In this document: one piece after another, positions 1,045 through 36,691 of the stretch
Layout of the letters: each line of letters opens with the position of its first letter
Numbering within the stretch: the stretch's first letter is position 1
Source of the DNA: a phage
DNA: 64,000 nt
NCBI GenBank assembly: GCA_027262695.1
Contig: GCA_027262695.1_4722.1
Strand: one strand, 5' to 3'
Program-made: the position numbers and the translations under genes
Notes under the pieces: model-generated
What the model was told of the DNA's origin: nothing
The model's database searches: none
Seen by the model: the letters and a program-made list of their open reading frames with translations, nothing else

Positions 1045-1472
1045 CGGAAATCAAACTTCTCATCACGGCCGTAGTCTTCATGCAGGAAAACTTCATCCAA
1101 AACAAACTCAAGTTGTGTATCGACATCACGACCCGAGATATTTCGTTTGTACAGATAAAGTTCAATCGTGTCATAAAGCAACGTATGGATATCGTAATTG
1201 CCATTCGGTGAGAAATAAGGTAAGCGCTCATCGAACATCAAAAACAGATATTCACTGTAGTTTAAGAACGGGATGATGTACCGACGTCCTGTCTGTGGTG
1301 CGCGAATATGTATCGAAACCTGACCTGGACGCGGAATCGCCGACGGTTTAGCATCGTCTCTCTGAAATTGCTCTAAAGATCGCAACAAAGGTGGCCGCAT
1401 TGTAACTCTCCAACGCCCAATTGTAAGGCCCTTCCAACATATGTTCCCATACGTGAATAAACTCACTACCAA
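915..1472 (-). CDS. hypothetical protein (start uncertain)
   Basis: ORF track; overlaps both neighbours out of frame; only the C-terminal ~120 aa look protein-like. Confidence 0.35.
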   Translation of the reverse strand: MVVSLFTYGNICWKGLTIGRWRVTMRPPLLRSLEQFQRDDAKPSAIPRPGQVSIHIRAPQTGRRYIIPFLNYSEYLFLMFDERLPYFSPNGNYDIHTLLYDTIELYLYKRNISGRDVDTQLEFVLDEVFLHEDYGRDEKFDFRCRLSVMRSEVHQILRTWIPRVEDWWHFNFTLDTSMTLWLVVE

Positions 1473-1977
1473 AAACCGGTTCTAACGTCATCGTAAGATG
1501 CGTAAGTTCAGAAGCTGCAGCGTGATACGCGTCCACGTGTCTTTCCATCGAAGGTTCGTCTTCGTTGAAAATCCGCTCGGTATCACCAGCGCATTCAATA
1601 AGTTCGGTAATGAGATCGATCCAGGTTTCGTGGCATGTCAGCGTTTCCTGTTCTCGACTTTGTATGCCGATGTCGGCGTGTACGCTGGACTCGAACCGGT
1701 CGAAAAGGACCCGAAGAACGTGCACCTTGTCGATGTATTTCACCGTTATCCAGGAAAGCGGTTGCCATCGACTCAGCATCCATCCGGTGCTCGGGAACCC
1801 CAAACTCATATAGTACGGGTTGCACGGGGCCAAGGACGGAACGGCGTTGTTTGTAGCGTTCCTTAACGGCGAGGCCTTGTTTAACATAAATGGGTTCATT
1901 GGCGAGTTCTGCGGCTTTTCGTTTTGCGTGGGCCAATCGAAGTTCTTCCAATTGTCCAAGCCATTCAAATTGTTCAT
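1348..1977 (-). CDS. hypothetical protein (start uncertain; may be a frameshifted continuation of 1595..2572)
   Basis: ORF track; N-terminal ~60 aa are low-complexity N/P-rich (alternate frame of the upstream gene), the rest is protein-like. Confidence 0.35.
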   Translation of the reverse strand: MNNLNGLDNWKNFDWPTQNEKPQNSPMNPFMLNKASPLRNATNNAVPSLAPCNPYYMSLGFPSTGWMLSRWQPLSWITVKYIDKVHVLRVLFDRFESSVHADIGIQSREQETLTCHETWIDLITELIECAGDTERIFNEDEPSMERHVDAYHAAASELTHLTMTLEPVFGSEFIHVWEHMLEGPYNWALESYNAATFVAIFRAISERRC

Positions 1978-2572
1978 CTGTTAGCTCCTGGGGACGTTCA
2001 ACAACCACGCCCGATGGGCAGACATTGATCGTAATGTTAATTGATGGCATCGCCATCACGCGAGGATGACTGTTGCGCATCCGAACAACGTGTTGACCTG
2101 CATTCTTACGATCGACATGAAATTCTGTTTCCTTAAAGTCAAAGGCTTGTACAGGAACAGGTTTCCTTTTACGTTTCGGAACGCGGCCAAGATCGACGAT
2201 GAAAATGTAATCACAAACACGCTCGACCCCATAAACACGATTTTCAGACCAACTCTTACCGAATACATTCGGATGGTAATACGACAAATACTCGGTTACC
2301 ATTCCCTGGACAAGATCGAAGTCTTCTCGAAATTCAGGTTGGTACCAAATCGGACCGAGGATTTCTGCAAACGCTTCATGTCGATAGCGGCAATCATGCC
2401 GTGTCCAGGGCATTCTCTGATTAAGATCGAAATCCACCAACAATTCGGTTAATTGCAGTTTTGCCTTCGGAGAAAGCTGGCGTTGATGATGCAAACTCAG
2501 GCAATCGATAAGCGGTAACGAAACCCACGACGCTAACGTATACAAATCGATCCTGGCTAATCTCTTGGTCAT
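1595..2572 (-). CDS. hypothetical protein
   Basis: ORF track, 325 aa; first ~250 aa protein-like, C-terminal ~80 aa Arg-rich and possibly out-of-frame read-through. Confidence 0.45.
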   Translation of the reverse strand: MTKRLARIDLYTLASWVSLPLIDCLSLHHQRQLSPKAKLQLTELLVDFDLNQRMPWTRHDCRYRHEAFAEILGPIWYQPEFREDFDLVQGMVTEYLSYYHPNVFGKSWSENRVYGVERVCDYIFIVDLGRVPKRKRKPVPVQAFDFKETEFHVDRKNAGQHVVRMRNSHPRVMAMPSINITINVCPSGVVVERPQELTDEQFEWLGQLEELRLAHAKRKAAELANEPIYVKQGLAVKERYKQRRSVLGPVQPVLYEFGVPEHRMDAESMATAFLDNGEIHRQGARSSGPFRPVRVQRTRRHRHTKSRTGNADMPRNLDRSHYRTY

Positions 2573-2663: not shown

Positions 2664-2984
2664 CTATTTTCTTCCTCTTTTGATACAACCGATACCCCTT
2701 TCATTTAAAGCCCCCCAGGCGCGGTTTATTTCATCTTCTGTTGCTCGCGTATCTCGCGGAACCACCATCACGCAGTCTTCTATCGGCCAATGCGTCGGTC
2801 GAGGATCAGCAAATAAATCGTCCCACTCAAACGTCCATTTCCTCTTCGAACGGTTATAGTAAAGCGTGAGGTACGTACGCGTATACGCTGGGTAGCCTTG
2901 TAACACGGCGAAGTCTTTTCGATCCTGATGTGCTTGATTCCATTCGTTAAAACGGTTTCTTATTCTTGTCCACCATTTTCCCAT
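2664..2984 (-). CDS. hypothetical small protein
   Basis: ORF track, 106 aa; GGAGAG RBS upstream of the ATG; sits directly downstream of a terminator hairpin and TATGCCG box. Confidence 0.6.
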   Translation of the reverse strand: MGKWWTRIRNRFNEWNQAHQDRKDFAVLQGYPAYTRTYLTLYYNRSKRKWTFEWDDLFADPRPTHWPIEDCVMVVPRDTRATEDEINRAWGALNERGIGCIKRGRK

Positions 2985-26292: not shown

Positions 26293-27024
26293 TTACCACG
26301 CATACGATCCAGCGCTTTGATGTCCTAAAAGGACTAACGCATCATCTTTAGCAGCCAGGTATTTATCCATTGTAATTTTCGTTACCGACACATTGGAAAA
26401 ATCCATAACCCCCAATCGATGATCGTAATGGTTAATTTGCATTCGGTAATACCCTTTCTTTACAACCAGGAACTCACCTTGACGCAACCATAACGGAACA
26501 TCATCGACTTCCGCATGAATGTAGAACACAGGACACTCTGTCGATACGGAGCTGTCTTTTCCGTCTTTGTCCTTGATCTTACCTTTGGGTATAGCCGCAA
26601 TAAAACATTCGCCAATACGCTTGGTGTGATAACCTTCCGGGTATCGTGGGTCGTGAAATAACCAATGTTCGTCACTGATATCAACATCAGATAACAGCGT
26701 ACGATGAGGACGTAATGCAAGATCGAATGGAACCCGATAGATGACATACCCGCCCAACCAGTGCGCGAGATTACCACCGGAATAGTACTGCTTAATGGCG
26801 GTGCTATAACCGTATATGCAACCCATCAGGCTGCTGGATACACAAATCCGTGGAAATGAACCATCCTCCATTCTCAAGGTACGCTGAGGAATACGAGGTG
26901 TCATCGTTTTCAATTCGGTATCGGTGCTGATGTGTAATAAGCCGAACGGTAACGTTCTGCTGGGTACCCACGCACAGCGTTCCATAATTGCTCTTGGGAC
27001 AATTGTCTCGATAGCCGATAACAT
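26293..27024 (-). CDS. hypothetical protein
   Basis: ORF track, 243 aa. Confidence 0.6.
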   Translation of the reverse strand: MLSAIETIVPRAIMERCAWVPSRTLPFGLLHISTDTELKTMTPRIPQRTLRMEDGSFPRICVSSSLMGCIYGYSTAIKQYYSGGNLAHWLGGYVIYRVPFDLALRPHRTLLSDVDISDEHWLFHDPRYPEGYHTKRIGECFIAAIPKGKIKDKDGKDSSVSTECPVFYIHAEVDDVPLWLRQGEFLVVKKGYYRMQINHYDHRLGVMDFSNVSVTKITMDKYLAAKDDALVLLGHQSAGSYAW

Positions 27025-27025
27025 A

Positions 27026-27736
27026 TTACCCCCTCAGAATCGCTTCTGTTTCGCTGATCGTATCCGCAGGATAAACCAAACTACTGTCGATGGCGTTATT
27101 GACGTAACCACCCATTAAGTTGGTGATGGTGTTTGTACCGCTATCGATGATGTTTCGTAATCCGATATCGATGGCTTTTAACGTACTGCGTTCCTCATCA
27201 GAAAGCAAACGCCAGGCTCGACGACGGTCGTTGGGATCACGCGTGGTGATAGACGCCAGAACAGAATAAATGCTGCTGTCTGCGTTCAGCTTAACCCCAG
27301 CTAATTTTGCAGAGGTATACAACAACTGATATTTCTCTTTCTCGGTGTACCACCATGGCACCTTACCGAGTGTATAGATCTCGTTATACATCAACCAAGG
27401 AAAAGAGTTGCGCATAACAACATCGGTCGATACCAACACGGTATCACCTGGAAGAAAGACAAATTCATAAAACGGTTGACCATCCATGGTAATCTCACGG
27501 ATGTCGGACGGGTCGATATGGAGCTGGGTCAATGCGTGGCTGACACCATACTGACCATCGGGAAGAATAATCGGGCAGCACGCACAAACCCGGTTCTCAC
27601 TCCCGATGATAGATAAACCCAATCCCTCGTAACGGACGGGTGTCAGAATCGAACACCCGCCACGAGTAACAACAGATTTATCTTCTTGTATGTCCCAGTC
27701 CGCAAGCACCGCAGCACCGTTGCGGACAAGCGCCAT
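27026..27736 (-). CDS. hypothetical protein
   Basis: ORF track, 236 aa. Confidence 0.6.
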   Translation of the reverse strand: MALVRNGAAVLADWDIQEDKSVVTRGGCSILTPVRYEGLGLSIIGSENRVCACCPIILPDGQYGVSHALTQLHIDPSDIREITMDGQPFYEFVFLPGDTVLVSTDVVMRNSFPWLMYNEIYTLGKVPWWYTEKEKYQLLYTSAKLAGVKLNADSSIYSVLASITTRDPNDRRRAWRLLSDEERSTLKAIDIGLRNIIDSGTNTITNLMGGYVNNAIDSSLVYPADTISETEAILRG

Positions 27737-29257
27737 TTACACCTCGCTAATCTGGATAACGTAAAGCTGCTGGGCCACGTAATCGGTGGTCAGATGCATC
27801 GTTGCGATCGTTGCAGCTTCGAAAACGGTAAGCTCCGGACGTTCGCGCATGATCAAATCGATCTCGTCGATCAAACGGTTAACGCCCTGGGCGTCTTCAT
27901 GATGCATGACTTTGACGTATAGCGTACGGAAGTATTGCTGGAAGTTAGCCACGTCGGTATCGGTCAGATTAGCCACTTCACCACGCACGATTTCCAACAC
28001 TTTCTTACGGGTGTCTTCATCAAGGTCTACCGTAATCAAATCAGCAAATACGCCTTGCAGCGCCAACGCGTATGCGCGTAAGCGGTTTGCAGCTTGCTGG
28101 CTGGCTTTCATGTTAATATAATTACGATAGTGCTGCATGAAGCCTGCACCGTTCGCTAACAGTTCATCTTTGCTGATGAGTTCACGTTCCAACAGAACCG
28201 CTGCGGTTAATGCTTCTGGTGATCCACCTTCTTGCAGATAACTCATGTAGACGTCAGCATTCACGAAGATCGTCATCGTTGATGCATCTTCGGCGCGTTG
28301 AATCTGAGACACGGATGGCGCAGAAAGAATCAGTTCGCCACGCTCCATACGCAGGATACGATCACGACCAATACGTGCCATCCCGTTGATCGCTGCACTA
28401 CGGGCCTGTTGCATCTTCGCACGATAGTTCTCGAGCATCATGTCGTTACCGTCCTGGATATCTTCCAGTAGGTTAACCGCCCACATATAGCAGAGGAAAG
28501 CCGGTGTTGCAGCAGCACGTGAACCCTGGAAGGCGACGTTGTCGCTATCTGGATACGTGATCAGGAAAACGTTGTTGGTAGCGGACGCCGAACCACGGAA
28601 GAAATGATTGTAAATATCTTCCAGTGCTTGATCGCTCATTCCTTCGGTCGCTTGCTGTACGAAACGATCCAGGTTTTCATTACCGGTATACAACAAATTG
28701 CGGAGTTTGTCGCCGGTGATATAAGCCAGCTTCTCGGTTGGGGTAAATTCATTGTTAACATCGATCAGGCCGTTAAGGTTATACTCGCCCACCAACGCCT
28801 GATATTCTTCAGAGTTATAAAACTCAGGATAGTAACTCAAACTTACTGTCGGGATCAGTTTAGGTGCCAGGATGATCGCGTCGATGCGTTTCTCCAGTTC
28901 CGGGTACAAGGCACGGCATTTCGGCAGGATGGTATTACGTGCCAGCTCTTTGGCATACACCACCTTTTCCACCACGTCTTGAACTGCGGTCTGTAGAACT
29001 TCATCATGGATATAAACCTCGCGTTCACCAGCAGGTCGTACGGCACCGTCCTCGGTTTCATCAAGGGTTTCAGCGACCATCACACGCTCAGCACTCAGCT
29101 GTACTAACGCATCAGCATCTTCTGGCGGTTGGTTCCAATGCATGGTTTCACAAACCGCAGCAAGCGGGGTACCTGGAATTGCTGCAACGATTTGATTGCG
29201 TTTAATAAACCCTTCAACGATCGGCTCAACAGCATAAACGGTTTTATTGGTAATCAT
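27737..29257 (-). CDS. hypothetical protein
   Basis: ORF track, 506 aa; start overlaps the upstream stop. Confidence 0.6.
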   Translation of the reverse strand: MITNKTVYAVEPIVEGFIKRNQIVAAIPGTPLAAVCETMHWNQPPEDADALVQLSAERVMVAETLDETEDGAVRPAGEREVYIHDEVLQTAVQDVVEKVVYAKELARNTILPKCRALYPELEKRIDAIILAPKLIPTVSLSYYPEFYNSEEYQALVGEYNLNGLIDVNNEFTPTEKLAYITGDKLRNLLYTGNENLDRFVQQATEGMSDQALEDIYNHFFRGSASATNNVFLITYPDSDNVAFQGSRAAATPAFLCYMWAVNLLEDIQDGNDMMLENYRAKMQQARSAAINGMARIGRDRILRMERGELILSAPSVSQIQRAEDASTMTIFVNADVYMSYLQEGGSPEALTAAVLLERELISKDELLANGAGFMQHYRNYINMKASQQAANRLRAYALALQGVFADLITVDLDEDTRKKVLEIVRGEVANLTDTDVANFQQYFRTLYVKVMHHEDAQGVNRLIDEIDLIMRERPELTVFEAATIATMHLTTDYVAQQLYVIQISEV

Positions 29258-29490
29258 TACTGCGCTCCCTCCAACGCGTTATTACGTACCGGCTCTTTGG
29301 TTTCCAGACGGCTGTTCAAGCGCGCAGCAACCGCATCTTCCAATCCCAACGGCATAACCTTTTTATTCACATCAGGATCCGCTGCATCGTTACCGACGGT
29401 CTGACGGACGACCTCAGCAACCAACGTTACCGCGTTCGTCAGCGCAACAAAGCTCGCTGCCCGAGCCGTATTAAGTTGTTCTTGGTTCAT
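29257..29490 (-). CDS. hypothetical small protein
   Basis: ORF track, 77 aa; AGGAA RBS. Confidence 0.5.
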   Translation of the reverse strand: MNQEQLNTARAASFVALTNAVTLVAEVVRQTVGNDAADPDVNKKVMPLGLEDAVAARLNSRLETKEPVRNNALEGAQ

Positions 29491-29524
29491 TCACTTTTCC
29501 TTTACCACGTTCAGCGAAATAAAT

Positions 29525-29550
29525 GAGCAGGGGCATAACGCCCCTTGCTC
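29525..29550 (-). terminator. terminator hairpin after the RNAP beta 3' exon
   Basis: GAGCAGGGGC...GCCCCTTGCTC; on the minus strand followed by ATTTATTTCG. Confidence 0.5.
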
Positions 29551-30651
29551 TTATTTGGCTTCGTTAAAATAAATATCAACGGCACGTTCCGTTGCGTAGA
29601 GAAGACCCAGATTCACGGTCCCTACCACTTCCGGTGAACCGATGATACGGTTAGCGATACTGGTGCCACTGAAGATAGCATCAAGGGTGTGCCCGTCTTC
29701 GGTTTTGTTCACACCATGACCCACGGAAGAGACAACGGATTTTGCCTGTGCTGCGAAGGTACCTTTATCCCCCATTCCCGCACCCAGGTCGTAACGCATG
29801 AAAATACGGATGGCGATCTGGTTCTCGCCTAACGGATTACCGTCTATTCTCACGTTACTGTTGTTGATGCGTCCCGTTGTTGCTTCGTTGAGTTTCAGTT
29901 CCTTAACGCGTTTAGCTCGCGCTTTATCCGCTTCACCCACAAGTGCTGCCATGGTTTCACTCATGTCTTCAATCTGGGCACGATACAACACATCGATCTG
30001 TACGACTTCACCATGCACGTCAGCCCGTGGGTTATACTGACTCATACGGCGTAACGCTTCAACCGCTTCCTGACTTTCATCGCTCAGATCGGTCGCAATC
30101 GGTTCTTCCAGTGTTGCCAGGATCGTCCGAGGTTCAACATGATCGCCGATTTTCACCAAACCACGAATGTTGAGATGAGCGTCAACAATGAGCGTACGAC
30201 TCTTAATCGATGGTGTTACGAGACGATCAGCGAGATTGTCGAAGATATACGAACTGTCCTCGTGCGTTTCTGGAATATCCAAAATACCAACCAAAGACAG
30301 AACGCCTGCGCGCCAAACCACCTGACCTGGGTTCCACCAATCCCGTTTGAAATAAAGACGATGGAATACCACTACATCCTGATCCTTAACGCGATCACCA
30401 ACTTTATAATCGGTAATGAGATCGTGAGGATAATACTTACCTGGTCCTTTCCCGATTATCGTACCGAGTTGGAAAACCTCTTCCCCTAATTCTGGATCGT
30501 CGTATTGTATCGTAAGCGCTGTTTTGGTGACCTTCTTCACAACACCATCGCCTTGAGCAGCTGCTGCGAAGAGTTTACCAACACGATGCGCGATAACAGT
30601 CTCACCACCTGTACGCCATGGTTGTACGTCGTAACCTTCAGCAGCTATCAT
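29551..30651 (-). CDS. RNA polymerase beta-subunit segment, 3' exon (GDK catalytic-region motif)
   Basis: 366 aa ORF; ...YDLGAGMGDKGTFAAQAKSVVS aligns to the E. coli rpoB GDKMAGRHGNKGVIS region, and IGDHVEPRTILATL / PRADVHGEVVQIDVLY align to upstream rpoB segments; the frame stays open upstream to a stop at 30796..30798, so the exon probably starts between 30652 and 30795. Confidence 0.6.
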   Translation of the reverse strand: MIAAEGYDVQPWRTGGETVIAHRVGKLFAAAAQGDGVVKKVTKTALTIQYDDPELGEEVFQLGTIIGKGPGKYYPHDLITDYKVGDRVKDQDVVVFHRLYFKRDWWNPGQVVWRAGVLSLVGILDIPETHEDSSYIFDNLADRLVTPSIKSRTLIVDAHLNIRGLVKIGDHVEPRTILATLEEPIATDLSDESQEAVEALRRMSQYNPRADVHGEVVQIDVLYRAQIEDMSETMAALVGEADKARAKRVKELKLNEATTGRINNSNVRIDGNPLGENQIAIRIFMRYDLGAGMGDKGTFAAQAKSVVSSVGHGVNKTEDGHTLDAIFSGTSIANRIIGSPEVVGTVNLGLLYATERAVDIYFNEAK

Positions 30652-31148
30652 GCGGTTGTGCTGTATACCTATAAATACGAGACGCTTTGGCGAAATCCAG
30701 CAAAATACAATTACTGTGCGTCTAGATTGTTCAGATAAGGTCGTTAATCTTATCCCGGTGGTGATGATAGGTGCATCACCAACCCGCTTGCGCTCTCACG
30801 CAAGAGCAGACTATATCACATCTCGTTTCAAACGGTGCTTCTTCAGCGCCTCAACGAGAGTTCACTTCTTCCCAGCGCATCCAGCGCCATTCTCTTATCC
30901 AAGGAGAATGCCTCACTCGAGGGGTACAGGGGGATGAATCCCTTAGTCGTTGAACCGTCACCCTAGAACGTTTCACAACGATCCTTAGGCGATTGGCTGC
31001 GGATTGTCCTTAAGCTATTATCTGTTTTATAACCATACCGTCTTTCTTTTCAGAATCCGTTTTGGTCGATAACAGCGATGGATGTCTTCGCAATTCAGTG
31101 AATCTCATCTACATGTCGCCATATAGACGGACCCTGCTATTAAAAGCG
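30652..31148 (-). ncRNA. group I self-splicing intron (boundaries approximate) in the RNAP beta gene
   Basis: Minus strand carries an R-like element GGTTCAACGACTAAGGGATT (30956..30937) and an S-like element TGATATAGTCT (30818..30808) that can form P7 (GACTA/TAGTC), followed by a P9-like hairpin (30806..30786); no ORF >60 aa in the correct orientation. Confidence 0.55.
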
Positions 31149-34100
31149 TTAATCATCTCTGTCGGCAGCAGGTACTGCAAGTGCCGATGTACTCATTATT
31201 GACGAGCTACCATCCGTTTTCTCGTCGTAAGGTTTTGTTTCACCGTATACAGACACGATGTTTGCGTTAGGTGCAAGATAAGCAGAGATACCTACATCGC
31301 CACTGTCCTTCGTACCTTCAGATACCACACCGATGTCTGACTTGTCGTATTCACGATCGCGTGCGCGTCGAAGCGATGTTTTCGAACGACCCCCGATACC
31401 GGTCATCGTTGCTTCTTCACCCTGCTTGATATCCAACATCGGGTTGGTTTCATCGATGACAATAGAAGCACTGTCGTCAAGGATTTGGTTCCAAACGCTC
31501 ACCGGACTGATTGAGATCTTCTGTCGGTTGCCTTGGCTGCTGTTCTCGTTTTGACGAATAGCACCAACCAGATCCTTATACACCAACTCAGCGAACTTAT
31601 CGTACGTTTTGAAGCGCTGGTAGTTCACATCGTTCGTGTTCGGTGCCCAATCATCCAGAAGCAGTTCAACAGCACGTAATAACAACATGGCGAAATCAGT
31701 CGGTTCACCCATGTTCTGCAATAATGTACGACTTACCGGGTCGACGAAAAGACGCTCCATGAGTTCAAGTTCGCGAAGATGACGAACCTTAAGACCTGCA
31801 CCATCGACAACGTTAAAATAGATATCCCGATTGTCAAAAGCGCCGCGAGCGTAACCGATGTAATTACGGTATTCGTTAAATCCACCCAACAACAATGTCG
31901 TCATTCGATCATCTTTACTGAAGATCAAACTTTCATCGTCGAAGCTTACCGCGAATTCATCCGATGCTAAGCCCATACGAGAACCACGAACTACCGTACG
32001 GTAGTTCGCTTTAAGATGTTCTAATAACGGAGTAAGTCCGCCTAGGTAACTTAGCACAACGCCAACCGGGATACGTACGCCCATGAACTCAAGGTCAGCG
32101 GCTTCGATAGGCATCTTCGCGGCATTGATACCGAAGAAATCAGGGAACGTTCCAACCGGCGTTGGGGTTTGATTCGGTTCGTAAACGTACAACTGATTCT
32201 GATTATCCACCGCCAGGAATTCACCGTTGGTGTTTTTGGCGAACGTTAAGAATCCACCCGCCAGCTGTTCGGTGAACAAATCTGCGCCGATATGTTCTGG
32301 CAACGTTTTGATATCGAGGCGTATGTCCCAATCCGCAAATTGAATTTGGGTGTAGTTACGCGCAAGCACAGCGAAGTAATACGGAACTTTGACAGCCGGA
32401 TCAAAGACGTTACCACGTTTTAAGGTGGTTAGCGGGGAGGTTTTATCGTAATACATCGCTGTGAGTTGACGTGTTAACCAACGACCAGCATTATTCACGA
32501 CACGCTCTGAACGTTTAACAAACACCTTACCGTAGGCGGTACTCAACGCAACTTCGGATGATGATACCTTTCTGATAGGTTTATCAACACGTTGTTTACG
32601 CATCCGGTATTTAATACCGTTAACGACATAAATACCGTCCTTACGAACCTTCGGTAACATCACCGGGAACGTCGTTGGAACACCACCCACCGGAGCCAGC
32701 TTGATCGTGATGACCTGGTAATCACCCATCACGTCAACAACATCTTCAACTTTATATCCGGTAACAGGATAGCCTGCTTGTTGCACTGCCACAACGGCCG
32801 CTGCGATGTCCTTTTGCATCACGTGTTCAACGTAATGTTTATCCCACACCGCAAGCGTCGATTTACATAGGCTCTTATCGACGATAACATCCGCTTCCGG
32901 CATAACCTTTGCTGGCGCTAATTTCGCGGCTTTTGGTTTAACCTCAACGTATTCAGCAAGCGTTAGTCCAGAACCGTCAGGTGCTTCAATTTCATGAATC
33001 GCGTCAGCGTTACGCATCGCGGCTTTATATTGAACGCCGCTTAATTGACCCGCATCCGCGAGGTCGCTCGCACGTACCAACACCGCATCGGATAACGACT
33101 GAATATATTCACCGTGCGTTTTCGGCAACGTTGCCGCATCGAAGACATCATCTTTTTCTTCCGGCACGTCGTCGTTGACGACCTCAAAGAGATCATCGGT
33201 GATGTCTTGATCTTCGTCCGGTTGAAAATCGGGCTGAACTTCAACGCCCGGGACTTCACGAACATCTTCGAACGCACGCTCAACAACCGCGTTCCATGCT
33301 TCAGCGTCGTCATCCTCATCCGATCCTCCGATCAACTCGCTTTCCAGTTCATCGGGGTCAAGAACGGTATCGAGATCCTCACCGTTAGGAAGCACGACAT
33401 CACGTTCATCGTACTCCGCATCGGGACTGTCTGCGAGAATATCACGCTCCTGACGAAGAACCTGCTCCTCTTCTTGTTTCTGTTCTTCTTCGTTGGCGCT
33501 CTGCGACCACAGACGGGTTACCGCCATCATCCAACGACGCTGGAATGTTTCAAGCGTTGTCTTATCAAGTTCCTCGCCTTCCTTCGCCAAACCCGAACGC
33601 CATTCTTCCATTAAACCAAGATTCAGGGTAAAGAAATAGACGCCGTCCGTAAATACAACGTTAAGCTTATCCAGCGAAGCACGATCCAATGACGCCATCG
33701 TACTGTTCTCACGATCGACACCTAACCAGCGGAAGAAGTCAAAGAACGACAGCTCCTCTGAGGTGGCAAAATTCATGAGGTTATTACGGGTTGGGGCTTG
33801 TTGTGTCGTACGCATCAACGATATCTTCGGTAACGTCGACGGGATACGGAATAACAAGAACTGCTGACGGTCGCTTTGCTTGGCGATCTCGTTTGCTTGC
33901 GTCCAAATCGTTTTACGCACGTTGAACCACTCATCATACCAACGTGTTAGCGTCGGACGATAGATGTACATGTGGTTAAGATGCGCATAGTTAGCCACGA
34001 TCTGGGCGTTGATGTTCTTCTCAACCTTGCTAAGATCGGTGACCAAACGAAAACGACGATGCGATGCACGGTAATCCAGTTTCGCACGCGGTAGCTGAAA

Positions 34101-34358
34101 TCGCTGATCGCGTCGAGGCGCGCCTTGCTTGGTTGCGAGGTCATCCGCGAACGATATCCAAAGCTGTGCACTTTCTTTGCTCAGCATGTATTCGTTTTCA
34201 GGAGGACCTATTAACGAAGGATCGGTTGCTGTGTAATGATAAACAGCATAACGCGGCAGCTGCAAAAGCTGCACCAAACGCAATCTAGGTGATAATAACT
34301 CTTGATAACGTCGTACACCGAATTGTCTGTAGTAATCAAGGTATTTAAGTTTTGCCAT
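31149..34358 (-). CDS. RNA polymerase beta-like subunit, N-terminal and middle part (5' exon), with a long N-terminal extension
   Basis: 1069 aa; C-terminal region NPMLDIKQGEEATMTGIGGRSK...VSVYGETKPY aligns to the rpoB fork segment [26 protein letters not shown]...LSVYAQTNEY; own ATG with a GGAG RBS; acidic low-complexity insert. Confidence 0.65.
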   Translation of the reverse strand: MAKLKYLDYYRQFGVRRYQELLSPRLRLVQLLQLPRYAVYHYTATDPSLIGPPENEYMLSKESAQLWISFADDLATKQGAPRRDQRFQLPRAKLDYRASHRRFRLVTDLSKVEKNINAQIVANYAHLNHMYIYRPTLTRWYDEWFNVRKTIWTQANEIAKQSDRQQFLLFRIPSTLPKISLMRTTQQAPTRNNLMNFATSEELSFFDFFRWLGVDRENSTMASLDRASLDKLNVVFTDGVYFFTLNLGLMEEWRSGLAKEGEELDKTTLETFQRRWMMAVTRLWSQSANEEEQKQEEEQVLRQERDILADSPDAEYDERDVVLPNGEDLDTVLDPDELESELIGGSDEDDDAEAWNAVVERAFEDVREVPGVEVQPDFQPDEDQDITDDLFEVVNDDVPEEKDDVFDAATLPKTHGEYIQSLSDAVLVRASDLADAGQLSGVQYKAAMRNADAIHEIEAPDGSGLTLAEYVEVKPKAAKLAPAKVMPEADVIVDKSLCKSTLAVWDKHYVEHVMQKDIAAAVVAVQQAGYPVTGYKVEDVVDVMGDYQVITIKLAPVGGVPTTFPVMLPKVRKDGIYVVNGIKYRMRKQRVDKPIRKVSSSEVALSTAYGKVFVKRSERVVNNAGRWLTRQLTAMYYDKTSPLTTLKRGNVFDPAVKVPYYFAVLARNYTQIQFADWDIRLDIKTLPEHIGADLFTEQLAGGFLTFAKNTNGEFLAVDNQNQLYVYEPNQTPTPVGTFPDFFGINAAKMPIEAADLEFMGVRIPVGVVLSYLGGLTPLLEHLKANYRTVVRGSRMGLASDEFAVSFDDESLIFSKDDRMTTLLLGGFNEYRNYIGYARGAFDNRDIYFNVVDGAGLKVRHLRELELMERLFVDPVSRTLLQNMGEPTDFAMLLLRAVELLLDDWAPNTNDVNYQRFKTYDKFAELVYKDLVGAIRQNENSSQGNRQKISISPVSVWNQILDDSASIVIDETNPMLDIKQGEEATMTGIGGRSKTSLRRARDREYDKSDIGVVSEGTKDSGDVGISAYLAPNANIVSVYGETKPYDEKTDGSSSIMSTSALAVPAADRDD

Positions 34359-34361
34359 GGG

Positions 34362-34548
34362 TTAGGCTCCACGAGGTCCCGTTAAGTTGCGTAATAGGAA
34401 CGCAACCGTATCGTAACCAATATCAATGTTGAATTTATTTTTACCGCTTACCCAGAAAGCACGCTTCTTGTGCGAGTTGGTAATTTCGTCGATGGCTTCC
34501 ATGGAATAAAGAACGTTAACCGAGACCGTATCACCGTCGAACCTTGTC
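34362..34548 (-). CDS. RNA polymerase beta-prime N-terminal subunit, 3' exon carrying the FDGD catalytic motif
   Basis: Minus-strand frame open from 34562: RTEAKTRFDGDTVSVNVLYSMEAIDEITNSHKKRAFWVSGKNKFNIDIGYDTVAFLLRNLTGPRGA-stop; resembles rpoC [20 protein letters not shown]...SQDVVLGLYY; stop TAA lies 3 nt before the beta-gene ATG. Confidence 0.5.
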
Positions 34549-35198
34549 TTCGCCTCAGTTCGCTACGCTGAGACCGCCTGCATGGATACGTACATGACAG
34601 GCTGCTTGCACTTTCATGCAAGAGGAGACTATATCAAACCGGCAGCTTCACCTTCTCGATCGTATCGAGAATGCGGTGCTGAAGTATTCTTCAGCAGCAC
34701 CTGCTACGGTAACCTACACTTCGAAGACGCTTGTCCTCTACAGGGTGGTAAATCCCTTAGTCGTTGAACCTGCGTTGTTTCCCATTCTTGGTTGCAAGAA
34801 TGCCGTATTACTACGCAACAACCAGGCTGCTGATTGCCCATTGTCTCGCACCTTAGCACCGCTTACGCGGCTTTTCTTTCAGCCTAAGCCTCTTACGGAG
34901 GTAGTGCATCTCAACTGTTGTTTCTGCCTTTCGGCACCCCATGGGTCGTTGAGCTTTAGGGGTTCCCAGCAATTCGTAGGTTTTTCAAGCACTCCCTTTC
35001 GGGAATACCGGACAACTTCCCTTGAAAAAAGTCTTTATTTTTCAAGGACTTATCCCCGCCGAGTCCCTGGAGGTACGGGCTCGGAATGCAAACCGTTTCT
35101 ACGAACGATGCTTTTTGTTTCCAATCAGGGTATTCCCATGCGATATATCGTTCGTCAGTAATCGGTTCCCAATTACTATCAAGTTCTGTCTTGGGAGA
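34549..35198 (-). ncRNA. group I self-splicing intron (boundaries approximate) in the RNAP beta-prime gene
   Basis: Minus strand carries R-like GGTTCAACGACTAAGGGATT (34770..34751), S-like TGATATAGTCT (34636..34626) and a P9-like hairpin (34622..34605) that shows a compensatory pair change relative to the other intron. Confidence 0.55.
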
Positions 35199-36518
35199 AG
35201 CGTTAACGGTTGTACGCGCATAACAGGTTAACGGAATGACTGACTGCATGCCCGATACCGGATAACGTGTTACCATCGCAGCCAGGTTGTTCCAGTATTT
35301 ATATCCTGCGATATAGATAAGCTCAGTATAAGTAATGGGGTGAACATCCGCACCAGGTTTGTTAAGCATCTCTGGCGGTATTTCACTCATACCGCGGAAA
35401 AGTCGGAATGAATCGTTGTTTACATAAACCAAACAGAGATAACGACCATTCACCATGATAGGTTCGTTACGTACGCCTGGATCGCTTAGCGTGTTCAATA
35501 AACGTTCGATACCATCCCAAGTAGTAAAGTCATCGATGGTGTCAGGATCAAGTACGACTCGTTCACGTTCCATCGTTTCGGTATCGATAAGCTCAACCTC
35601 GGTAACATCACGGACGAAGATCTCTTGCAAAATACCAGTACGTAATGCGTGTTGCGTTATCGGAAGGGCTGCTTTGCTCATCTGGTATAGACCAAGCTGT
35701 ACAGATGTACATGACGTTTGGTTTGGAGAACCGAGAACCTCCGTTGTGGGGTTAATTGCCGAAATAACGTTACGGGTTGAGTTCCAAACACGACGTGAAC
35801 CGAACTTACCTTGGAAGATCCCTTTCTTACCCTGGAACATATCCAACAGCAATGCGTAGATATCATTGAAGGTTCTTTGCAGGCTCCAGCGCTGTCCGTC
35901 GTAGACAGGATCGTTGTAGTCCTTTAATCCATCGGGAACGGTATTGGAGATAGCAAGGAAACGACGGTAGAGCTCCGTGATTTCTTGTTCGCTTTCATAC
36001 CCGCCTTCCTTTACTTCTATTTCACGAAGACCAGCAGGTAACACCAATAAATGACGGGTCATCGCTTTGAACATGTTTTCTTCGACAACTTTAATACGCA
36101 GTTCTCGTTGCGCTGAACCTGTTGAAACGAACTTGATCTCCGCAACGTGTTGTGCGAAGAAACCGTAGCCGGTTTGTCCCGTTAATGCGTCAGCAGCAAC
36201 GAAATCACGCTGTTCTGGATCCCATCGTGCATAAGCTTTACCGGACATGATATCGCCATAAAGGTGTTTCAATCGAATAAGGCGATCGTAAATGACCGGA
36301 TGCAAGATTTCCACTTTACACTCGATGACCGCAAAGCGGCGATCACGATCTTCACTACCCGCACTCCCAAAGATGGTGTATGAATAAAAACCATCATCAT
36401 GGAAATTACCCGTACTCGGGTCACGGATACTCATGCTGGTAATCTTAGGAAGGAAACGCAACTGCTGCTTATCAAGATGCAGTATACTGATATTGAACGG
36501 CTCTCTGACTTTAGCCAT
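35199..36518 (-). CDS. RNA polymerase beta-prime N-terminal subunit, 5' exon (ORF reads through into the intron to 34956)
   Basis: ORF 34956..36551; start trimmed to Met 12 (AAGGAG RBS); LPAGLREI...GGYESEQEITELYRRF resembles rpoC [44 protein letters not shown] resembles GKRVDYSGRSVI; homology ends near ...ARTTVNA (about 35199). Confidence 0.6.
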
Positions 36519-36691
36519 GGATGCACTCCTTAAATAAGGCGGCGGTATCATCTGAACACATGAGAGACGTAATGGGTGAAGCCATCACCCATCGCTTCCC
36601 TGCTTGATGCGAGGAAGGTATTAAATTACGTACCTGTCCGATGGCCTCGAACAGGCGATGTATGAAGCTATGCTTCAATTTGGAGGTATAC

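Follow-up and report, generated by a model that had tools for sequence, protein, structure and literature searches.

A probable td-like group I intron without an endonuclease gene interrupts the beta gene for the virion RNA polymerase in a Goslar-like Escherichia phage

We examined a 64,000-nt stretch of phage DNA (the window; contig GCA_027262695.1_4722.1 of assembly GCA_027262695.1) in which the gene for the beta subunit of the virion RNA polymerase is interrupted; this gene and all the features described below lie on the minus strand. With a probability of about 0.9, the 461 nt from 31151 to 30691 are a self-splicing group I intron resembling the td intron of phage T4, which carries no endonuclease gene, is placed directly after two Asp codons of the beta gene, and belongs to a mobile family. 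The ribozyme fold, the exact collinearity of the flanking exons with an uninterrupted homologue, the family and insertion site, and the polymorphism of the element among related phages were observed directly. The region shares 90% identity with the chimallivirus Escherichia phage vB_EcoM_Goslar, and the interrupted gene is, to judge from its sequence, a homologue of phiKZ gp178, PhiPA3 gp211-209 and Goslar gp207.

One beta gene in two reading frames

A first-pass annotation of this DNA had proposed that two open reading frames (ORFs), separated by a gap of about 500 nt, are exons of one beta gene interrupted by a second group I intron. The reading frames are as it described them: the 1069-aa ORF terminates at ...VSVYGETKPYDEKTDGSSSIMSTSALAVPAADRDD, 25 codons past the fork-like segment VSVYGETKPY, and the 366-aa ORF contains the GDK-region segment GMGDKGTFAAQAKSVV, its frame being open upstream to 30795 (a TGA stands at 30798-30796). 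Conceptual removal of 31151..30691 gave a 4347-nt stop-free ORF with gap-free 88% identity to Goslar gp207 (annotated as "RNA polymerase beta subunit"), which is itself a single uninterrupted ORF of 4347 nt and reads ...STSALAVPAVDRDDGKRLVFVGIQHNRMIAAEG.... Compared with Goslar, the insertion in the window opens directly after GAT GAT and closes just before AAG CGT; the junction is in frame (GAU GAU↓CCA AAG, the arrow marking the splice junction, for DRDD↓PKRLVF), with U at position -1 and G as the last intron base. The exon 1 product covered positions 2-1050, and the exon 2 product positions 1051-1422, of the 1424-position profile PHROG 3148 (RNA polymerase beta subunit; E-values of 1e-289 and 2e-120, respectively), and BLASTP aligned exon 1 with PhiPA3 gp211 (36% identity, reaching ...NDD) and exon 2 with PhiPA3 gp209 (39% identity, from KR onward). 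Because the excision restores a collinear ORF of gp207 length, and because the PHROG 3148 positions of the two products abut at 1050 and 1051, the proposal that both ORFs are exons belonging to a single beta gene, with a joined product of 1448 aa, is supported. The annotation had failed to locate the beta regions between the fork and region F and had considered them possibly divergent or absent; they are at least partly present, the junction motif being the conserved Asp-Asp of beta with the intron exactly there.

Exon 2 starts 13 codons upstream of its first ATG (30651), and the evidence indicates that its translation would run on from the splice junction and not start at this ATG. No in-frame ATG, GTG or TTG occurs between the TGA at 30798 and ATG 30651, and no obvious Shine-Dalgarno sequence was seen ahead of 30651. 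The 13 codons (PKRLVFIGIQHNR) differ from those of Goslar by six synonymous changes, one Ile/Val and one Gly/Pro change. In the variant genome L017 the first four exon 2 codons are all replaced synonymously (CCA AAG CGT CTC to CCT AAA AGA TTG), and genome L019, with a protein identity of 66%, opens exon 2 with the same CCA AAG CGT. A scan of the spacer on the gene's strand found no promoter- or terminator-like site, and the alternative that the annotation had set against its own proposal, a spacer acting merely as terminator or promoter, is not supported.

Ribozyme structure and splice sites

A scan of the whole window against Rfam at gathering thresholds (a score of 50 for RF00028) returned exactly two matches, both to RF00028 (group I intron) and both on the minus strand: one at 30787..31153 (51.0 bits, E=5e-10, full model 1-253), as the annotation had predicted, and one at 34605..35037 (58.4 bits), here called intron 1. 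The beta introns of L006 and L005, two further Goslar-like genomes from IMG/VR with the intron at the same site, scored 54.0 and 51.4 bits. Two short elements that the annotation had recognised as common to both introns of the window, R and S (TGATATAGTCT), are the two strands of P7: R is 20/20 identical to intron 1, and S lies inside a 29/33 match to it and is followed by the P9 hairpin.

The intron reaches 96 nt past the end of the Rfam model, to 30691, and its minimum free energy is below that of all 100 shuffles (z-score -3.26). Besides the elements in Table 1, the fold has a long P5 extension followed by P6, P6a and P6b with a GUGA loop, a P7 pairing of CGACUA with UAGUC (intron positions 204-208 with 339-343), a branched P7.2, and P8. 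Hairpins are predicted at the P7.1/P7.2 and P9.1/P9.2 positions of a td-like layout, those of P7.1/P7.2 being invariant among the available copies; in the Michel-Westhof classes the T-even td intron belongs to subgroup IA2. Covariation was scored after aligning the window with L006 and the L005 core; this alignment holds 110 proposed pairs (330 pair cells) and has, with three sequences, limited power. Standard pairs make up 98.8% of the 330 cells; five pairs (in P2, P5, P6a, P6b and P9.1) show double-sided compensatory changes and nine show one-sided changes that preserve pairing, nearly every substitution within a helix keeping its pair. When the partners were slid by 1-3 columns as a control, 37-45% were paired with 0-1 double changes. 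Among intron ORFs of at least 40 aa on the gene's strand only a 41-aa ORF with a GTG start was listed (not scanned against Pfam), and no intron-encoded HNH endonuclease was found.

In a local fold of exon 1 with the intron 5' end, P1 is formed by exon GAU plus intron U1 with G19 G20 U21 C22 (31133..31130; helix GAUU:GGUC) and carries a small GCU/AGC extension. U31152 at the 5' splice site is wobble-paired to G31132, as is typical of group I 5' sites. A GUC just 5' of P2, pairing with exon GAU, can also be read in L005, L019, Serratia phage Haymo, PhiPA3 and Vibrio phage C-ZP2022; P1 extends to GAUUGU:ACAGUC in PhiPA3 and is GACGAU:GUCGUC in C-ZP2022. A guide of three bases is also known for the Azoarcus intron. 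At the 3' end the intron closes with its omega-G, G30691, and exon CC pairs with the guide GG (P10); the junction G↓CCAAA(G or A)CG is common to the window, Haymo (junctions GAUGAU↓UAAUG...UUUUCG↓CCAAAACG) and L019 (GACGAU↓...CUG↓CCAAAGCG).

Splicing would then begin with folding of the pre-mRNA to the P3-P9 core, the guide GGGUC pairing with the last three exon bases GAU and U31152 wobbling with G. An external guanosine would attack after U31152, exon 2 (CC) would next be aligned by the guide sequence, and the freed 3'-OH of exon 1 would attack after omega-G 30691. The products would be GAU GAU↓CCA AAG within a ligated RNA ...GACAGAGATGAT↓CCAAAGCGTCTC and a 1448-aa beta subunit ...AADRDD-PKRLVFIGIQHNR..., with AADRDDPKRLVF as the protein span across the junction. 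On unspliced RNA, ribosomes would stop at the UAA formed by the first three intron bases, as in T4 td. Catalysis and the exact P1 and P10 pairings, like the homing considered below, are what we infer from these observations.

Several further pairings and junctions were tried and rejected. The match of UGGAUUU (30699..30693) with the guide GGGUCCG is a 7-bp one that contains wobbles, with a chance estimate of ~0.5 per 460 nt; the pairing of CGCUUU (intron 4-9) with exon 2 AAAGCG is not conserved in L005; and the repeat GAUUAACG, one copy of which lies at the 5' splice site and one within the P9.2 loop, lacks conservation in L005, PhiPA3 and Haymo. Alternative in-frame junctions (GAU↓AUU... and GAUGAU↓AUUUCG...) would alter product length and lose the P10 pairing.

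Table 1. Exons, reading frames and intron elements of the interrupted beta gene (window coordinates; intron positions are numbered from 31151, with omega-G as position 461)
Feature	Coordinates	Strand	Basis or remarks
ORF, 1069 aa	31149..34358	minus	ORF list and translation
ORF, 366 aa	29551..30651	minus	contains GMGDKGTFAAQAKSVV
Exon 1, virion RNA polymerase beta gene	31152..34358	minus	1069 codons, the last two GAU GAU = D1068 D1069
Exon 2	29551..30690	minus	379 codons and stop; opens CCA AAG CGU CUC = PKRL
Group I intron, 461 nt	30691..31151	minus	starts UAA (stop of 1069-aa ORF), ends omega-G 30691; exact insertion relative to Goslar gp207
Internal guide sequence GGGUC	31130..31134	minus	predicted to pair with exon 1 GAU and intron U1 (P1) and exon 2 CC (P10)
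P2 hairpin, 10 bp, GCGA loop	31106..31129 (intron 23-46)	minus	1 compensatory and 5 one-sided pair-preserving changes
P3	intron positions 50-55 with 286-291	minus	Rfam alignment, fold
P4-P5(extension)-P6 domain	30954..31092	minus	Rfam alignment; fold; compensatory changes in P5, P6a, P6b
P6'/J6-7/P7 5' strand and P7.1 start (R, GGTTCAACGACTAAGGGATT)	30937..30956	minus	20/20 identical to intron 1; Rfam consensus GGUUCAaAGACUA
P7.1 and P7.2 peripheral hairpins, between P7 and P3 3' strand	30871..30943	minus	sub-domain fold; invariant among three variants
P7 3' strand / J7-9 (S, UGAUAUAGUCU)	30808..30818	minus	Rfam consensus; GATATAGTCTGCTCT 15/15 identical to td intron
P9 hairpin, GAGA loop	30787..30804 (intron 348-365)	minus	Rfam model ends here, not the 3' splice site
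P9.1	30784..30757 (intron 368-395)	minus	one compensatory pair
P9.2	30755..30733 (intron 397-419)	minus	within td-identical 30758..30728
Lineage-specific 37-nt 3' tail	30691..30727	minus	AGACGC 30723..30718, hairpin P9.3, GAUUUCG ending at omega-G 30691
P9.3 hairpin	30716..30698 (intron 436-454)	minus	fold

Relatives, mobility and the td-like segment

The window from 26551 to 33651 is 100% identical over 7.1 kb to the 248-kb contig ABJYRE010000004.1 (GCA_027262755.1), and the intron is present in 6/6 public variants examined of the window's own lineage (96-100% identical). The phage genome collection that was searched did not contain this intron-bearing phage; because several sequencing runs yielded public contigs, 24 in all, with the exact exon 2 protein, this Goslar-like phage is widespread. 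Three states of the site exist among Goslar relatives: empty, as in Goslar (GACGAT↓GGAAAACG); occupied by an ORF-less intron, as in the window and in L006, which has the same 461-nt intron; and occupied by an intron with an HNH endonuclease, as in L005, whose 1583-nt version contains a 403-aa ORF with NUMOD1, I-TevI DNA-binding and HNH signatures. The best match of this ORF among 50,697 phage genomes was PhiPA3 gp210 (36% identity, 5e-46), and, as in PhiPA3, the ORF sits between the 5' splice site and the guide with its 3' end overlapping P2-P5. The intron of the more distant L019 has an HNH ORF of 373 aa, and the same exon-HNH-exon layout was found in Serratia, Pectobacterium and Vibrio chimalliviruses.

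The site is already known. In the work of Birkholz et al. (2024 Science, PMC11620839) the PhiPA3 gp210 intron directly follows the two conserved Asp of the beta subunit of the virion RNA polymerase; these residues are equivalent to the D675 region of E. coli RpoB and to D1072 of phiKZ gp178, and gp210 is a nicking HNH homing endonuclease (PMC11620839). The window intron is an ORF-less relative of it: it lies in the same gene, directly after GAU GAU↓ (the insertion point reading DRDD↓ in the window, NDD↓ in PhiPA3 and YDD↓ in Haymo); both have a guide GUC just 5' of a GCGA-looped P2 and a UAACGA motif in the P9.2 loop; and in the sister genome L005 this intron contains a homologue of gp210. The two differ in that the window copy is without an endonuclease ORF and has a largely different ribozyme sequence, in which P5 and P7.2 are greatly extended, P9.2 is identical to td over 31 nt and a tail of 37 nt forms the 3' end, and in their hosts, E. 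coli for the window phage and Pseudomonas for PhiPA3.

Over the whole gene L005 and L006 are nearer to Goslar (93-97%) than to the window (87-93%); over the last 100 nt of exon 1 this is reversed, with 70-73% identity to Goslar and 96-97% to the window. Identity between the window and Goslar likewise drops locally to 67-80% from -190 to +30, and the flanking exon tract common to intron-bearing alleles is 100-200 nt long. Because the intron-bearing alleles share this distinct flanking tract, the pattern is as expected if the intron has spread between lineages by homing with co-conversion of its flanks. The spread of an ORF-less copy would be either passive or dependent on the endonuclease of a co-infecting relative. 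L005 also contains two versions of the P2-P3(5') segment (1418..1495 and 2495..2560): the copy upstream of its ORF resembles that of the window and has no matching guide sequence, and the second lies inside the 3' end of the ORF and has the GGGUC guide. This suggests that the endonuclease cassette of L005 may have arrived together with its own 5' ribozyme segment.

The resemblance to T-even td introns includes UAA as the first intron bases, a GNRA-capped P2 beside the guide, the predicted P7.1/P7.2 and P9.1/P9.2 layout, the 15/15 identity over GATATAGTCTGCTCT, and the P9.2 region (30758..30728, intron 394-424), which is 31/31 identical to T-even td introns including that of TuIa (blastn against phages and pairwise comparison). 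This 31-nt segment matched 226 T-even-like records at 95% or better, 40 at 99% or better and 186 at 95-99%. Except for the 15-mer in P7'/J7-9, the rest of the intron cannot be aligned with td by BLAST, and the P9.2 elements of PhiPA3, Haymo, the Vibrio phage and L019 have different stem sequences. Other differences are the host gene, the endonuclease (td has I-TevI, a GIY-YIG enzyme, in P6, and the family of the window intron has HNH in the P1 loop), and the 3' end, since td ends 5 nt past the shared segment and the window intron runs on for 37 nt. The identity suggests that an RNA module may have been exchanged between introns of unrelated E. coli phages; it might instead reflect shared ancestry and constraint.

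The 37-nt tail is absent from td, PhiPA3, Haymo and L019. Its 5' part, AGACGC, is complementary to exon 2 GCGUCU at +6..+11, with the P9.3 hairpin between them. In L017 (about 2900..2975) the tail and the exon 2 start differ in sequence and keep the same layout, with CCAAUCU opposite AGAUUGG at +7..+13 and a tail hairpin of AAAAUCAA and UUGAUUUU. In a shuffle test the two tail-exon 2 helices individually gave p of about 0.07 and 0.10, and a metagenome scan for further tail variants using TTAACRACCTTATCTGAACAATC gave no match. A speculative extension, which we hold to be doubtful, is that the intron is a recent chimera: its P9.2 would have been swapped with T-even td introns sharing the E. coli host, across phage families despite the chimallivirus nucleus, and the 3' site would have moved 31 nt downstream, the tail-exon 2 pairing (AGACGC:GCGUCU; CCAAUCU:AGAUUGG in L017) and the hairpin presenting the new site. 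Also seen in L017 were a 19-nt extra hairpin in the P8 region (about 2790..2810; CUUGU-GAUA-ACAAG) and, relative to the window, several paired changes in P9 and P9.1.

Intron 1 interrupts the neighbouring gene of the same RNA polymerase cluster, and is the "Intron_gpI" annotated in Goslar (NC_048170 211817..212245), which has intron 1 and lacks the beta intron. Its host gene is taken as beta-prime-like because its exon 2 encodes ...AKTRFDGDTVSV..., a catalytic-type motif of beta-prime. It too occurs with and without an HNH ORF, and it is polymorphic in the opposite sense (window 34362..36551; L001 8540..12231): the window ORF 34956..36551, a homologue of Goslar gp205 (95% identical), reads straight into the ribozyme, and in Goslar exon 1 is separated from the ribozyme core by an additional HNH-like ORF of 490 aa (gp206). 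Klebsiella phage phiKp_32 (L010 1250..2700) shows the order exon 1, HNH ORF, exon 2 in its virion RNA polymerase beta homologue, with a more distant endonuclease (30% identity) and an insertion ~5 codons further downstream, after DDPKRL; introns have therefore entered this motif at no fewer than two neighbouring sites. Within exon 1 of the beta gene, 1000-1200 nt upstream of the intron, a stretch at ~32150..32360 has 63-76% identity between the window and L005/L006 and 71% to Goslar, compared with ~90% elsewhere in the gene; the protein segment that it encodes, ...LPEHIGADLFTEQLAGGFLTFAKNTNGEFLAVDNQNQLYVYEPNQ..., resembles a variable surface insertion.

Alternative readings and implications

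Several points weigh against splicing as we describe it. The Rfam score of the window intron is barely above threshold, P1 is weak (three exon base pairs and one wobble), and the automatic Rfam alignment places both P1 (ACGCUUUUA with AGGGUCCGU) and the 3' end (30787) elsewhere than the junction proposed here. The subunits of chimallivirus RNA polymerases are often truly split into separate polypeptides, and sequencing of full-length phiKZ transcripts found no splicing at the predicted endonuclease-containing "introns" gp56/72/179 (PMC10914365). The 495-aa junction region had no Pfam or PDB sequence match at E<=1, because the protein is very divergent, and the link of the window protein to RpoB is made through short motifs and the published alignment of PMC11620839. 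For this phage the case is built from sequence. The marginal score, the short P1, the phiKZ transcripts and the rule among chimalliviruses that beta and beta' are split would all suit a gene that is genuinely split, in which the ribozyme is an inactive relic and two beta fragments are translated separately, the second from ATG 30651. We consider this quite improbable: the 13 conserved codons before ATG 30651 evolve synonymously and contain no start codon, the beta profile crosses the junction without gap or loss, a split would sever the Asp-Asp/Lys-Arg motif, the ribozyme helices have been kept by compensatory changes, and neither a promoter or terminator signal nor an obvious Shine-Dalgarno sequence precedes 30651.

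The boundaries might also be those given by Rfam and the open frame, the 5' site lying within CGCUUUU, the 3' site at G30787, or both, which would add ~32 residues (RVGDAPIITTG...CWIS) to beta; the P1 placement and model end of Rfam, and the frame open from 30795, point that way. This is hardly credible. The Rfam P1 has three non-canonical pairs and loses its C4-G24 pair in L005, and with a 5' site in CUUUU the in-frame UAA would remain part of the exon. Placing the 3' site at 30787 conflicts with the Goslar collinearity, and would put 32 residues, absent from Goslar, PhiPA3, Haymo and L019, inside the DD-KR motif; the 96 nt that follow form P9.1, P9.2 and the tail, with 31 nt identical to td intron RNA. 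An open run of 32 codons has a chance probability of ~0.2, and the frame open back to 30795 is fortuitous; the stretch 30795..30691 is intron RNA, and the 3' boundary suggested by the annotation must be corrected to lie between 30691 and 30690. Likewise rejected was GIRLTTLSEQSRR of the open frame as counterpart of RpoB NRALMGANMQRQ, since the stretch is absent from Goslar, the true counterpart being DRDDGKRLVFVGIQHNR. A td-like terminal motif that ends at 30722, CUGAACAAUCUAG, occupies, just past P9.2 in the alignment, the position of the 3' splice site of the td, PhiPA3, Haymo and Vibrio introns, and its use as an alternative 3' splice site would shift the frame and truncate beta, the outcome being a regulatory product or an error. 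We judge this very unlikely: translation would leave the frame and meet a stop after 27 codons, the exon ACG is unable to pair with the guide GG, and the CUAG motif is missing in L017.

With splicing from 31152 to 30690 as the preferred reading, the annotation of this gene should be amended, the two ORFs being merged into a single virion RNA polymerase beta subunit of 1448 aa (exons 34358..31152 and 30690..29551). The finding leaves the knowledge of group I introns or jumbo-phage polymerases unchanged. It does mean that the Asp-Asp site of the "weaponised" PhiPA3 intron is also occupied in E. coli chimalliviruses, and the natural polymorphism around the model phage Goslar offers a system in which intron-mediated competition could be tested in E. 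coli.

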